From contig CAWIPH010000002.1 in the NCBI GenBank assembly GCA_963837955.1, forward strand, positions 1,248,001 through 1,312,000: a stretch of 64,000 nt of DNA. Direction: 5' to 3'. This stretch comes from an uncultured Verrucomicrobiae bacterium (GTDB lineage: Bacteria > Verrucomicrobiota > Verrucomicrobiia > Chthoniobacterales > JAFAMB01). The position numbers are program-made. How positions within the stretch are numbered: position 1 is the stretch's first letter; the number at the start of each line of letters is the position of its first letter. This document shows positions 42,001 through 45,000 of the stretch, in pieces.

Positions 42001-45000
42001 TGGCTTCGCAACGGAAAATCCCATTCGCTGACCACTAGCACAGTCACGCGATTTTATTCACGGTTCCGGTCCCGCTACGGACGTCAGAACGTAGTCCAGC
42101 AATTTATTGCTGGGTAAATTGTAAACAAAGACGGTACCGTCCCGCCAGGGACGACACGAAAGTAGCCCAGCACGAAGTGCTGGGGAGGCGTTCAAAAAAG
42201 TGACCCGTCCCGGACGGGACGATCGAAAGAGGTTCGCATGGAAATGAGTGGTATTAAGCGAAAGATCAACAAAACGTATAAATATAGTGTTGTGATACTG
42301 ACTGATTCATGCGAGAACATGCTCTCATGGCGCATACATTCTACTCACTGAATGTTCATTGCATTTTTAGTACCAAAGATCGTGTTCCATTACTCAGCCC
42401 TGAGGTTAGAGAACGTCTGTGGCCATACTTGGGCGGTATCGCCAAGCAAAACGGCGTTAGGCCAGCATGCGTTGGGGGTGTCGCAGACCATGCACATCTT
42501 CTACTTTCAATACCGACCACCATGGCGATCGCCAAAGCCATCCAATTGATCAAGGCAGGATCGTCGGCCTGGATACACGATACGTTTCGGGAACTACACA
42601 ACTTTGCGTGGCAAGAAGGTTATGGCGCCTTCAGCGTGAGCGTCTCCCAGGTTGCGGAAACCGTCGAATACATCAAGAACCAAGCCGAGCATCACCGAAC
42701 GCGAAGCTTCCAAGAAGAGTACCTTGCGTTTCTAAAAAAACATAACCTGGAGTTTGACCACAAATATCCCTGGAACTGAGAAACACGCTTCGATCGTCCC
42801 GTCCGGGACGGATCGGTCTTTTGAACGCCACCCAGCACTTCGTGCTGGGCTACTTTCATTGAGTCCCTCCGGGACGAGTCTTCTGCGCATGCTTCTAAGC
42901 CTCATGTTGACGCGCATGCGCGGCCGCGGGAGTGGGCTACTTTCATAACGTCCCTGGCGGGACCGGAACCGCCGTTATCTATCGATCCCCGCAATAAATT
43001 GCTGGGCTTCTTTTCATTGAGTCCCTCGGGGGACGACTCCTCTCCGCGCATATCCTTCCTCTTGTGTTGACGCGCATGCGCAGCCGGGGGACCGGGCTAT
43101 TTTCACGATATCCCTGCCCGGATGGAACCGCCATTTGTCGATCCCGCAACGAATTGCTGGGCCACTTTCGTGACTCCTCGAGGATGCGGGCTACTGCTTG
43201 GTGTAGGCGACGAGACTGATGCGTTGTGGCAGCAGGAACATAATTCGTCGGCCAAAAAACGACGCTTTTCGCAATCTCCAGCGAGCAAAATCATACCCCG
43301 TAACGGAGGTTGTTTGCCAGGAAGGATCGATCTCGCCGATCTTCTGATCGGAGGAAACCACACACGCCGCAGGACCGGGTTCATTCATGAAATGATTCAA
43401 TTCGCCCGGCTCCAACCTCTGATGAAAGGGCTTGGTCTTATACCGAAGATACCAGATGAGACTCTGTTCATCGTATCCGATCGAGGCGGTACGGGTTGAG
43501 GGTGAAAGCTGCCCTGCGATCTGCTCGAAAATAGTTTTCGAAGGAAAGGATGGGGCTATCAACTTGAATCCGATGGTAGCAACGAGCAGATAAGCGCCAA
43601 TCGCAAGCACCGCGAGAACCCGGCTCAAACGACTATCATGGATCGTTCGCCCCACCAAAATAGCGATGAGCGGGAAGGCCGGTAGGGTGTAATGCGGCAA
43701 CTTCGTCTGCAGGAGAGTGAATACGAGAAAGACGACACCTATCCCAGAGAGCGCATAGCGCTCGAATGTATCAAGCCCAACCCACAACCGCTGAACGGCT
43801 GCCGGTAGAAATAGGGACCATGGGAAAAAGCTGAAGAAGACAGTAACGAAATAGAACGGCAGGAGCAGAAAGTAGCCGCCCCATCCGGAAGCGCCATGGC
43901 TCTGTAACGGTGCTACCGATCGCATCACCACGTGTTTGCCGATACCAACCTGGAAGAATTCGCCGTGCGTTAGAACAAGCGCGGGTATTCCCCAAATTCC
44001 AATGATCACCAGTACGAGGAAGAACCCGGAGAGCGCGGATTGCAGTCGAAGACGCAACGGTGTTCGCGTCCAAAGATGGAAGAGCAGCAACGCCACGACC
44101 GGCAGAAAGGCGACAGGGCCTTTCGCCAAAAAACCGCCAGCCAATGAAAGGTAGAAACAACTCCAAAGGAGCAGCGATCGTTGCCCCTGGCTCCTTTCCC
44201 ACGCGGCCCAACTTGTCGCGATAAAAAAGAAAATCATCGGCATGTCAGCGACCGCCGCACGGCCATGAATGAAGATTTGGAGACAGGTCCCGAAGATCAA
44301 ACCAGACCAGAAGCCGACTGAAGCACCATACAATCGAGTGGCCCAGGCCGCGGTCAGGACTACAGCCGCAGCTGCAAATAGGGCGGATGGAAACCGGACA
44401 GCAAAATCGCTCTCGCCGAAAATCGTGCTGCTGGCGACCTGGCACCAGTAGATTAATGGCGGCTTATCAAAGCGATATGCTCCGTTCACTCGCGGAATGA
44501 CGAAGTCGCCGCTTTGCCTCATCTCTCGGGAGGCCTCCGCAAATCGCGGTTCGTCTCGGTCGATGAGCGGCAGCGTGTTGTTGCCTAGTGATTCCAGTAG
44601 TAAGACAGGAAGAAAAAGGAATAGAAGCAGGCGCATTTCGGTAGCAATGATCGAGTCGACAAGACGCAGCAGAATGGCACAAGGTTGAGACAATGGAAGA
44701 TCGGAAGCTACCGGAAGAGAACAAACGGAGACGTGCTTGGACAAAAGGTATTGTCTGGTTTTTTGTCCTGATCGTTGCTGCTCTGGTCGGATTTTTGCTG
44801 GACCCGCTCATTTTGCAGGCCGCGGCCGAGCATTCCAATAAGTCGCTTAGGAATTTCGCCGGCCTCCTTTCAAAAATTGGAGATTGGCCAGAGTTGATGA
44901 TTTTTGGCTTGGTCGTGTTGTTCTTGGTCCGGAACAATCGACGTTTAGTTAATGCCGTTCTTTGCATGATGATTGCCGCTACTCTGGCGGGAGCCGCGGT

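Follow-up and report, generated by a model that had tools for sequence, protein, structure and literature searches.

Acido-Lenti-1 (RF01687) matches in a Verrucomicrobiae genome as copies of dispersed repeats that bracket single-copy Y1 transposase genes

The matches to Rfam family Acido-Lenti-1 (RF01687) in the genome of this uncultured Verrucomicrobiae bacterium are copies of dispersed repeat families that bracket single-copy Y1 transposase genes. We consider it probable that the locus described here, which lies in the 64,000-nucleotide stretch of DNA that was analysed (the window), is a system of the REPtron or REPIN-RAYT-like kind and that RF01687 is its DNA recognition module. In this reading, the REPtron is a single-copy gene for a Y1 HUH enzyme that has its cognate repeat on both sides in inverted orientation, and about 89 REPIN-like, gene-less doublets and about 40 single arms of that repeat are scattered in mostly non-coding DNA. 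In Rfam and in the description given in Weinberg 2010 (PMC2864571), RF01687 is a probable RNA on the basis of covariation and is annotated as "Gene; sRNA", whereas the units seen here behave as DNA repeats that are dispersed, occur equally on both strands, and go together with a transposase gene. Papers of 2026 still treat Acido-Lenti-1 as a family of unknown function, and in one paper the copies beside protease genes of Tannerella are interpreted as possible regulators. With the present analysis this orphan, abundant family gains a concrete, testable identity and, if the motif is a repeat end, regulator readings such as that for Tannerella would change.

The transposase gene and its flanking arms

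The longest open reading frame at the locus spans window positions 42309-42779 (+) and encodes 156 aa. The transposase probably starts at the ATG at 42327, which gives 150 aa and matches the length of the database form P0001; the gene, that of a Y1 (HUH) transposase of repeat family A, was therefore placed at 42327..42779 (+), from ORF, Pfam, motif, homologue, and AF2 plus Foldseek evidence. The protein matched Y1_Tnp (PF01797) in Pfam at 4.9e-25 and its catalytic motifs are intact, comprising the HuH motif DHAH, a WQ motif, and the tyrosine motif YIKNQAEHH, in addition to a conserved C-terminal tail of ~30 aa. DHAH and Y121 align with their counterparts in ISDra2 TnpA and E. coli RayT, and the HUH motif and catalytic tyrosine are invariant across 34 homologues, as are Q125, H128, H129, W101, and Q102. 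The top Foldseek match of the AF2 model (pLDDT 87.4) was ISDra2 TnpA (1.7e-9). The structure of E. coli RayT (4er8) came at rank 30 by fold (5.1e-5) and was not among the PDB sequence matches at E<0.01; BLASTP against E. coli RayT returned E = 1.1, that is, no similarity. By sequence and fold the closest proteins are the TnpAs of ISDra2, IS608, and IS200, and the NCBIfam IS200 equivalog NF033573 was passed with 65.3 bits (cut-off 55). Judged by its sequence and predicted fold, the enzyme belongs with the hairpin-binding single-stranded DNA transposases. Close homologues bear the JGI name "REP element-mobilizing transposase RayT", presumably a COG name given to Y1 proteins in general, and these names were set aside as evidence.

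The gene sits between inverted arms of ~90 nt at 42139-42227 and 42789-42880 that are 89% complementary. Each family A arm has three hairpins (h1, h2, and h3), with a GTAG head on the middle one (h2). The left inner arm (42139..42227, -), identified as an inverted repeat, by nhmmer, by folding, and by an RF01687 match, runs from outside to inside as h3, linker, GTAG head, h2, spacer, and h1, and its h1 has a T-run on the outward-reading strand. Its inverted copy, the right inner arm (42789..42880, +), begins 10-11 nt past the transposase stop codon, and there h1 and its T-run look like a terminator of the transposase gene. When the arms were folded as single-stranded DNA, z lay between -3.9 and -5.3, and none of 200 shuffles folded equally well. 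Beyond the left arm lies an outer, degenerate REP unit of family A (42061..42154, -), seen as an nhmmer arm at 42069-42154 and as inverted repeats I4 and I5. Beyond the right arm, further partial REP units stand in direct order (42905..43172, +), where direct repeat families D1-D3 and an nhmmer arm were detected; these units, at about 42933-42963, 42947-43031, 43093-43125, and 43143-43172, resemble a BIME array.

Taken on the opposite strand, the GTAG-headed h2 together with the h3 that lies ~10 nt farther out is exactly what Rfam's Acido-Lenti-1 model describes. No RF01687 match in the window reached the gathering score (37 bits). Sub-threshold matches around the family A gene were found at 42831-42876 (+, 30.1 bits), 42138-42184 (-, 28.4 bits), and 42068-42114 (-, 19.6 bits), and those on the two inner arms correspond to the outer two hairpins. 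The units here have the two-hairpin build of RF01687; the window copies score under the cut-off, and at least 26 related copies in other parts of the genome reach it. Other repeats in the window are a single arm of family B (22745..22828, +; RF01687 at 22781-22827, 31.6 bits), the cognate gene of which is at C2:1214067-1214516, beyond the window, a family B doublet (61309..61509; RF01687 at 61310-61356 (-), 34.7 bits), and, from the arm census, a family D doublet at 34581..34705, whose GTAG repeats belong to a class-2 transposase. A single arm of family E (47271..47348, +) lies within a 308-nt stretch at 47090-47397.

Terminator-like sites in the gene region numbered seven, compared with a shuffle mean of 1.5, and included the outward h1 and T-run of both arms; a T-run of at least four follows h1 in 134 of the 220 family A arms in the genome. 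Because h1 and its T-run look like an outward-facing terminator, the repeats may also act on transcripts. Another reading is that the host has selected the repeats for a structural or regulatory role, for example as bidirectional terminators, as mRNA stabilisers, or as sites for protein binding, and that recombination or slippage would have spread them with no part played by the transposase. Roles of this type are documented for E. coli REPs in the relevant part of Bertels 2017 (PMC5581495), the repeats persist in some genomes where the gene was not found, and in family A a 23-nt core is conserved while the remainder of the arm drifts (the top core variant occurs in 87/220 arms). However, this would leave unexplained both the bracketing of the transposase by its own repeat type, seen in 57/80 homologous loci across phyla, and the co-variation of hairpin and protein described below. 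As the sole explanation we regard host selection as extremely improbable; as a secondary role it is compatible with the REPtron reading.

Repeat families and RF01687 across the genome

An nhmmer census of the whole genome yielded 220 family A arms, 112 on the - strand and 108 on the + strand. A preliminary description of this DNA had counted 190 ends by blastn, and the higher repeat counts obtained here arise because a profile search is more sensitive. Its statement that the ends are mostly inverted doublets holds: there are 90 (-,+) neighbour pairs, of which 89, spaced 42-99 nt, are gene-less doublets of ~224 nt each, and the only wide pair, 563 nt apart, holds the transposase gene. In 181/220 arms h2 is followed immediately by CTAC, which reads GTAG on the other strand. 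The arms lie fully outside open frames of at least 200 codons in 180 of 220 cases (82%), versus 18% of 2000 random windows.

Y1_Tnp was matched eight times genome-wide by genes that are all divergent, and the family A gene is present as one copy. Five of the eight have multi-copy repeats on both sides, as previously described, and the corresponding five families consist of 220, 91, 94, 157, and 115 arms. That the five repeat types do not cross-match was correct insofar as they are separate families, apart from two places where B and E overlap. Beside the fourth gene (g04204, C2:3780611-3781204) the nearest repeats are indeed direct, and inverted copies are found 268-316 nt upstream. The enzymes of families A, B, and E have a common Y---Q--HH motif, and those of families C and D are class-2 Y---NP transposases. 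There are three Y---Q--HH gene copies in the genome, the two paralogues of the family A gene being 44% and 41% identical to it. Two subclass-2.1-like Y1 genes in the genome are without flanking repeats.

RF01687 itself was matched at least 92 times in the genome at E<=1e-3, with at least 26 matches at or above 37 bits, where 29 hits had been claimed; these counts are lower bounds, as 150 of 1412 first-look candidates were scored. Among the 92 matches listed, 91, including all 26 above the cut-off, are located in arms of family A, B, or E and always on the arm's own strand, and none is in families C or D. The Acido-Lenti-1 matches are thus repeat ends, as had been proposed, and the further proposal that they are the hairpins of five systems stands for A, B, and E and falls for C and D, the arms of which never match RF01687.

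These data bear on the reading closest to the current annotation, in which RF01687 is a free-standing sRNA gene that has many paralogous copies and lies near transposase genes by chance. The covariation behind the published classification has a counterpart here in real compensatory changes, as pair 8 of h2 is C-G in 168 family A copies and A-T in 46, and in stems that vary by locus and stay paired; a DNA hairpin co-evolving with an enzyme, however, predicts equal covariation. Against an sRNA gene are the copy numbers, which are in the tens to hundreds per genome, with half of the copies on each strand because most are in inverted doublets, and the placement of 105 of the 147 matches in homologous loci at <=200 nt from a transposase gene in mirror orientation. 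Also, in the commonest h2 variant (87/220 arms) a pair that is a T.G wobble on the GTAG strand is a C.A mismatch when the Rfam strand is read. We consider it very unlikely that the family represents a free-standing sRNA. If RF01687-type modules and their transposase subgroup form a REPtron class that spans phyla, as discussed below, the Acido-Lenti-1 label would in these groups, and perhaps in others, denote repeats that are mobile at the DNA level and not sRNA genes.

Homologous loci and co-occurrence in other genomes

The link between hairpin and transposase seen in this genome extends beyond it, both in homologous loci and in two samples of 151 genomes. In the best 80 of at least 602 homologous loci, picked by protein similarity, there were 147 RF01687 matches at E<=0.1 in about 252 kb. 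A match lay <=200 nt from the gene in 57 of the 80 loci, 36 of which had a match of >=37 bits, and the density of matches was 3.32 per kb near the gene versus 0.23 per kb farther out. The arrangement of the family A locus, with a - match upstream and a + match downstream, was found in 32/80 loci, and flanking inverted repeats were present at E<1e-3 in 62 of the 79 loci that were testable. Most RF01687-bearing loci are labelled Acidobacteriota, Planctomycetota, or Verrucomicrobiota. A match was absent from 23/80 loci, and Bacteroidota loci had one in 1 of 8 cases.

Within one locus the left and right hairpins are 92% alike, compared with 62% between loci; the stems vary from locus to locus with their pairing kept. 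Protein and hairpin identity are correlated (Spearman 0.44), a value that 0 of 2000 permutations reached. The head in relatives is NTAG, with ATAG in 22, TTAG in 17, and GTAG in 11 of 64 flanking units. Direct tandem arrays, not inverted pairs, were observed in one genome (G007) and in the Lentisphaera rows of the original RF01687 seed, which draws on Lentisphaera araneosa and Koribacter versatilis.

In 151 genomes of this phylum, gene and motif were both present in 13, the gene only in 2, the motif only in 4, and neither in 132. The corresponding numbers for 151 genomes of the phylum of G151, a MAG labelled acidobacterial, were 24, 8, 8, and 111. As the genome at the centre of each sample was preselected for having both, the first figures should be read as 12/150 and 23/150. 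The 8 genomes of the acidobacterial sample with the motif and no gene become 7 without the unpublished genome G204; in G242 (21 RF01687 matches) and G200 (9) the gene was not found by profile search either.

Enzyme class, proposed mechanism, and turnover

The RAYT motif after the tyrosine is NP(L/V)(R/K)xG (Y---NP), according to PMC2817692 and the account of this motif in PMC6006769. The family A enzyme is without this motif and has YIKNQAEHH in its place; from this and from the BLASTP result, the enzyme of the RF01687-type repeats is, by its sequence, outside the canonical RAYT clade, and its earlier identification as a RAYT needs correcting in this respect. The organisation nonetheless resembles that of a REPtron or REPIN-RAYT system (Nunvar 2010, PMC2817692; Bertels & Rainey 2011; Ton-Hoang 2012; Corneloup 2021, PMC8266576), which likewise has a single-copy Y1 HUH gene between inverted GTAG-headed palindromes that are over-represented, mostly extragenic, and paired as inverted doublets, and several enzyme/repeat pairs per genome that do not cross-match. 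The features that define RAYT loci, namely inverted flanking REPs, a GT(A/G)G head with a palindrome, and over-representation, were found at family A. Differences are the Y---Q--HH enzyme, the NTAG head in relatives, the lack of identical copies here, and the size of the units, the arms being ~90 nt with three hairpins. REPINs are generally shorter than the ~224-nt doublets of family A; these doublets share the 23-nt core and have diverged as wholes. Overall, the kind of system is known, and what is new is a Y---Q--HH enzyme subgroup tied to REPs.

Nor is this the first report of such repeats in Verrucomicrobiota, as had been claimed, because the relevant part of Di Nocera 2013 (PMC3733652) already shows that GTAG REP families abound in Opitutus terrae and in the PVC group. 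Those families, including GTAG-17 to GTAG-20 of O. terrae, likewise have a GTAG head and GC-rich stem-loop, occur as several families per genome and as opposite-orientation dimers, and are found in Verrucomicrobia and Planctomycetes; Rfam goes unmentioned in that part of the paper.

By its motifs the enzyme fits TnpA-Y1 subclass 1.2 as outlined in the corresponding section of Quentin 2018 (PMC6006769). Shared with that subclass are the WQ motif, the tyrosine motif (YIKNQKEHH there, YIKNQAEHH here), a length near 148 aa (150 aa here) that includes a conserved C-terminal domain of ~30 aa, and the presence in a genome of few copies that differ strongly from one another; the subclass occurs in Bacteroidota, where homologues of the present gene are also found. 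Its HuH motif is DH[IV]H; DHVH is the form in genes B and E and in most homologues, and gene A has DHAH. In the same section the subclass is given as "REP: no", with a range of Cyanobacteria and Bacteroidetes, whereas the genes described here are bracketed by repeats and common in genomes labelled Acidobacteriota, Planctomycetota, and Verrucomicrobiota. We lean slightly towards the view that RF01687-type modules and the Y---Q--HH subgroup constitute a distinct, ancient, cross-phylum REPtron class, in which an IS200-like (class 1) enzyme would have come to live like a RAYT, whether separately from the canonical RAYTs or as a link between IS200 and RAYTs. If so, subclass 1.2, published as REP-less, is REP-associated, which extends the REP association to this subgroup in phyla with few REPIN studies. 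It also bears on a question posed in PMC5581495, namely whether IS200-like transposases were domesticated a single time or repeatedly.

The enzyme could also be that of an ordinary selfish insertion sequence of the IS200/IS605 type, with the doublets as its MITE-like deletion derivatives, and not of a domesticated, vertically kept RAYT-like system. IS608 and ISDra2 provide the nearest solved structures and sequences, with HUH and tyrosine chemistry and hairpin recognition by a guide tetranucleotide at the foot; the IS200 equivalog is passed, and the Y---Q motif is that of class 1. The top homologues, at 61% identity, are in MAGs labelled Verrucomicrobiae and Planctomycetaceae, and their presence in different phyla suggests horizontal transfer. 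Near-identical gene-bearing copies and dissimilar subterminal ends without terminal inverted repeats, which characterise IS200/IS605, were not found, however. Instead, each repeat type has a single gene copy (with the paralogues as divergent as noted above), the ends are long inverted repeats, and 89 gene-less doublets accompany a single gene. A tnpB-sized ORF is absent from the 1.3-kb intergenic space around the gene, and a relative of ~97.6% identity appears to retain the gene between the same unique flanks. We consider an ordinary insertion sequence unlikely.

In the REPtron reading, by analogy with IS608 and ISDra2 TnpA and with E. coli TnpA-REP, the enzyme would bind the folded hairpin of the recognition module (the GTAG-headed h2 and the h3 ~10 nt outside) on single-stranded DNA, with the tetranucleotide at the hairpin foot serving as its guide, and would cleave nearby through its tyrosine. 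The doublets, and not the enzyme's own gene, would then be moved or copied. With three orthogonal pairs in one genome, this compact enzyme/hairpin pair could be a model for how HUH enzymes read hairpins.

The family A population looks old rather than active, because no pair among the 89 doublets is >=98% identical (the best is 96.9%) and no two full arms are identical. For a target site, only a weak, pyrimidine-rich sequence (GRNTCYYYT) was seen outside h3, and no clear duplication was found. With the origin placed by GC skew at about C1:390 kb and the terminus at about C2:2.64 Mb, the orientation of family A doublets showed no replication-strand bias (44 co-oriented vs 45), and single arms showed no clear bias, with the exception of family B (12 vs 27, p = 0.02 uncorrected). 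A wobble test for the strand was contradictory, in that h2 points to the GTAG strand (C.A in 118 copies) and h1 to the other strand (T.G in 176). We noted that this wobble-pair test is dominated by single inherited variants.

DNA contigs of the ~97.6% identical relative, from four runs of one study, were aligned at >=88% likeness. In 4/4 runs, 42018-42101, which includes part of the outer left REP unit, was replaced by 8 letters, and the 308-nt stretch 47090-47397, with the family E arm inside, was replaced by 62 letters. Replacement of these REP-bearing stretches is a weak hint of turnover. Other contig joints had sides of <30 letters and probably come from other repeat copies. The family D doublet at 34581..34705 is kept in the relative, where contigs of runs X3 and X4 bridge it.

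The transposase gene and its inverted repeats

Two minus-strand genes, at 41204-41887 and 43191-44744, flank a 1.3-kb gap that holds one sizeable coding frame, at 42309-42779 on the plus strand (156 aa), which matched the Pfam Y1 transposase family (Y1_Tnp, PF01797) at 4.9e-25. Most database homologues start at its second ATG (42327) and are mostly 150 aa long. The gene is enclosed by two inverted repeat copies, or arms, with 89% complementarity, at 42139-42227 and 42789-42880. Folded as single-stranded DNA, each arm forms three hairpins, h1 to h3 (z = -3.9 to -5.3; 0 of 200 shuffles as good). 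Read from the gene outwards, an arm consists of h1, a T-run, a spacer, h2, CTAC, a linker of ~10 nt and h3, and the CTAC directly behind h2 becomes GTAG followed by a hairpin on the opposite strand. The portion from h2 to h3 has the two-hairpin build of Acido-Lenti-1 (RF01687), a family annotated as a small RNA in Rfam. RF01687 matches were found at 42831-42876 (+, 30.1 bits), 42138-42184 (-, 28.4 bits) and 42068-42114 (-, 19.6 bits), all under the 37-bit gathering cut-off. Degenerate extra units lie beyond both arms, those on the right forming a direct array to about 43172.

Amid the otherwise GC-rich arms, the sequence just 5' of the start codon (42228-42308) is AT-rich and partly palindromic. 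A markedly AT-rich, partly palindromic upstream stretch is common to all five repeat-flanked Y1 genes of this genome and might serve them as a common promoter or operator; a sigma-70 scan of 41800-43300 returned no promoter-like sites. A further module, at 42880-42930 and 43040-43085, contains GCGCATGC-type palindromes and is present in about 20-27 copies in the genome, often abutting arms of the type found at this gene (family A, below). The sole above-threshold Rfam match in the window was a tRNA gene at 18636-18708 (-, 71.6 bits).

Five repeat families in the source genome

A profile census of the source genome (contigs C1 and C2) identified 220 arms of the type found at this gene (family A), 112 on the minus and 108 on the plus strand. 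Neighbours less than 1500 nt apart were mostly (-,+) pairs (90, compared with 10 (+,-), 7 (-,-) and 4 (+,+)). All but one of these 90 pairs were spaced 42-99 nt apart, and the remaining pair, 563 nt apart, encloses the transposase gene. The observation made in the preliminary description is thereby not an artefact and lies well outside what chance would give. The gene-less inverted pairs (doublets), of median length 224 nt, have a common asymmetric centre of ~65 nt, found in both orientations. Most arms (180/220) were fully outside open frames of at least 200 codons, versus 18% of 2000 random windows, and h2 was followed by CTAC in 181 of the 220. The dominant variant of a 23-nt core occurred in 87 arms and the next two in 30 and 15; whole arms were ~77% alike, and no two doublets reached 98% identity. 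Such long frames fully contained 31 arms of family A (220 in all) and 24 of the 94 in family C; these could be in-frame intragenic insertions, of the kind reported from Opitutus terrae, or reflect spurious long frames of GC-rich DNA.

Eight Y1 matches were found in this genome, five of them with multi-copy repeats on both sides. Besides family A, these repeats form families B (91 arms, 28 (-,+) pairs), C (94 and 29), D (157 and 46) and E (115 and 26). In every family a wide arm pair surrounds its own gene, and the families are mutually non-overlapping except at two B/E places. Of the 92 RF01687 matches at E<=1e-3, a minimum count, 91 fell inside arms (A 49, B 37, E 4, B/E overlap 1), always on the strand of the arm, as did all 26 matches of at least 37 bits, again in A, B or E; arms of families C and D had none. 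Of the five RAYT/REP pairs proposed earlier, the five repeat-flanked Y1 genes stand, but RF01687 matches come solely from A, B and E. The enzymes split in the same way: those of A, B and E share the tyrosine motif Y---Q--HH, while the C enzyme (YVRNNPVRHG) and the D enzyme (NHVH, YIRDNP) are class-2, canonical-RAYT-like. Two further Y1 genes (C1:572685-573731 and C2:4338661-4339719), each of about 350 aa with NHYH, YIHLNP and a long C-terminal part, look like subclass 2.1 by sequence, and neither is flanked by multi-copy repeats. The eighth match is a 74-aa fragment copy (C1:573954-574175) beside the first of these. Outside the window, the family B locus is bracketed beyond its arms by inverted arrays of an ~8-nt tandem unit, GGAGTAAT-like on the left (C2:1213770-1213840) and its complement on the right (C2:1214670-1214720).

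Affinities of the family A enzyme

The family A enzyme, of about 150 aa with a conserved tail of ~30 aa, carries the motifs DHAH (DHVH in the B and E enzymes), WQ and YIKNQAEHH, and occurs in few, divergent copies per genome. It scored 65.3 bits against the NCBIfam IS200 model (cut-off 55). Among solved structures its top sequence match was ISDra2 TnpA (5e-8), and E. coli RayT was absent at E<0.01. Foldseek with an AF2 model (pLDDT 87.4) likewise returned ISDra2 TnpA (1.7e-9), IS608 TnpA (about 1e-8) and IS200 TnpA (1.3e-7), with RayT (4er8) at just rank 30 (5.1e-5). The preliminary description had assigned the RF01687-linked enzyme to a RAYT clade. That label has to be corrected, as the enzyme lacks NP(L/V)(R/K)xG, which is present in canonical RAYTs and given as their defining motif in PMC2817692, and BLASTP against E. 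coli RayT detected no similarity (E = 1.1). Judged by motifs, it agrees with TnpA-Y1 subclass 1.2 in Quentin et al. 2018 (PMC6006769), where that subclass is given as REP-less and mainly cyanobacterial and Bacteroidetes. [quoted passage not shown] 2017, with no duplicates and abundant flanking 16-mers according to excerpts of PMC5581495, may be the same clade.

Gene and motif across phyla, and proposed mobilisation

Out of at least 602 homologue loci, the 80 best were scanned with all of Rfam (E<=0.1). They gave 147 RF01687 matches, 105 of them within the 200-nt zones next to the genes, which account for 14.7% of the flanking DNA. Among these best 80, 57 had a match within 200 nt of the gene (36 with at least 37 bits); 32 had the arrangement of the window, minus strand upstream and plus strand downstream, and four had other orientations alone. 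Matches were present at 26/35 Acidobacteriota, 10/15 Verrucomicrobiota, 9/10 Planctomycetota and 1/8 Bacteroidota loci, the phyla being those to which we take the labelled loci to belong. The stems keep pairing through two-sided changes, and the head is ATAG, TTAG or GTAG. Hairpins on the two sides of the same locus were 92% alike, versus 62% between loci. Protein and hairpin identity were correlated (Spearman 0.44; 0/2000 permutations as high), which is modest support because some correlation is expected of linked DNA. Flanking inverted repeats (E<1e-3) were detected at 45 of the 56 testable loci that had an RF01687 match and at 17 of the 23 that had none, the latter including several Bacteroidota. 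At one locus (G007:C8:55937-59389) the homologous gene is embedded in 152-nt units repeated directly in tandem arrays; every unit carries an RF01687-type module, always on the same strand, and a separate 56-nt tandem array follows downstream. Copies from Lentisphaera araneosa make up most of the original RF01687 seed alignment, and many of them stand in direct tandem arrays.

Gene and motif also occurred together in two samples of 151 genomes, each centred on a genome picked for having both. In the window's phylum, for which the names given to close homologues point to Verrucomicrobiota (protein E<=1e-10, RF01687 E<=1e-3), 13 genomes had both, 2 the gene only, 4 the motif only and 132 neither; in the phylum of a labelled acidobacterial MAG, G151 (RF01687 E<=1e-5), the counts were 24, 8, 8 and 111. 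Related genomes are non-independent, so these counts carry no p-value, and the motif counts are minimum figures, as the RNA searches scored just a share of their first-look candidates. G032, G123, G005, G007, G085 and G035 are among the first-sample genomes in which the motif adjoins the gene; G123 has two gene loci, each with an inverted pair. One of the motif-only genomes in the second sample, G204, is unpublished. In G242 (21 motif matches) and G200 (9) the transposase gene was not found, even by a 34-sequence profile.

These data uphold and much strengthen the core REP-transposase interpretation. It is not the first case in Verrucomicrobiota, as had been claimed: in the available text of Di Nocera et al. 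2013 (PMC3733652), which does not mention Rfam, GTAG-tagged REPs are described in the PVC group, with several families in Opitutus terrae, and most species hosting them have REPtrons, transposase genes bracketed by their own REPs. A link of Acido-Lenti-1 to REPs or transposases was not found in the accessible parts of papers naming it (full-text search), nor was a link to Acido-Lenti-1 in literature on RAYT/REPIN in Verrucomicrobia or on REPtron/TnpAY1/TnpAREP since 2018. A practical re-annotation of RF01687 follows from our finding.

The best reading of the locus, by analogy, is a REPtron whose enzyme would mobilise the doublets. We infer that the enzyme would recognise the NTAG-headed hairpin on single-stranded DNA, modelled on IS608/ISDra2 and TnpA-REP, for which recognition and mobilisation are described in PMC8266576. 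Doublet orientation showed no replication-strand bias in the source genome, and a wobble test for the functional hairpin strand in family A arms gave a contradictory result; together with the lack of identical copies and the motif-bearing genomes in which no gene was found, this speaks against present activity or leaves the strand open. By cumulative GC skew, the origin is at about C1:390 kb and the terminus around C2:2.64 Mb, with about 2.8 Mb on each side if the two contigs form one chromosome. The h1 hairpins of family A arms are terminator-like, and a secondary role on transcripts is therefore possible. Contigs of a relative of ~97.6% identity differ from the window at two REP-bearing stretches, a weak hint of turnover. 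One is a 308-nt intergenic stretch (47090-47397) that carries a family E arm along with further pieces of hairpin, in place of which the relative's contigs have 62 letters (4/4 runs).
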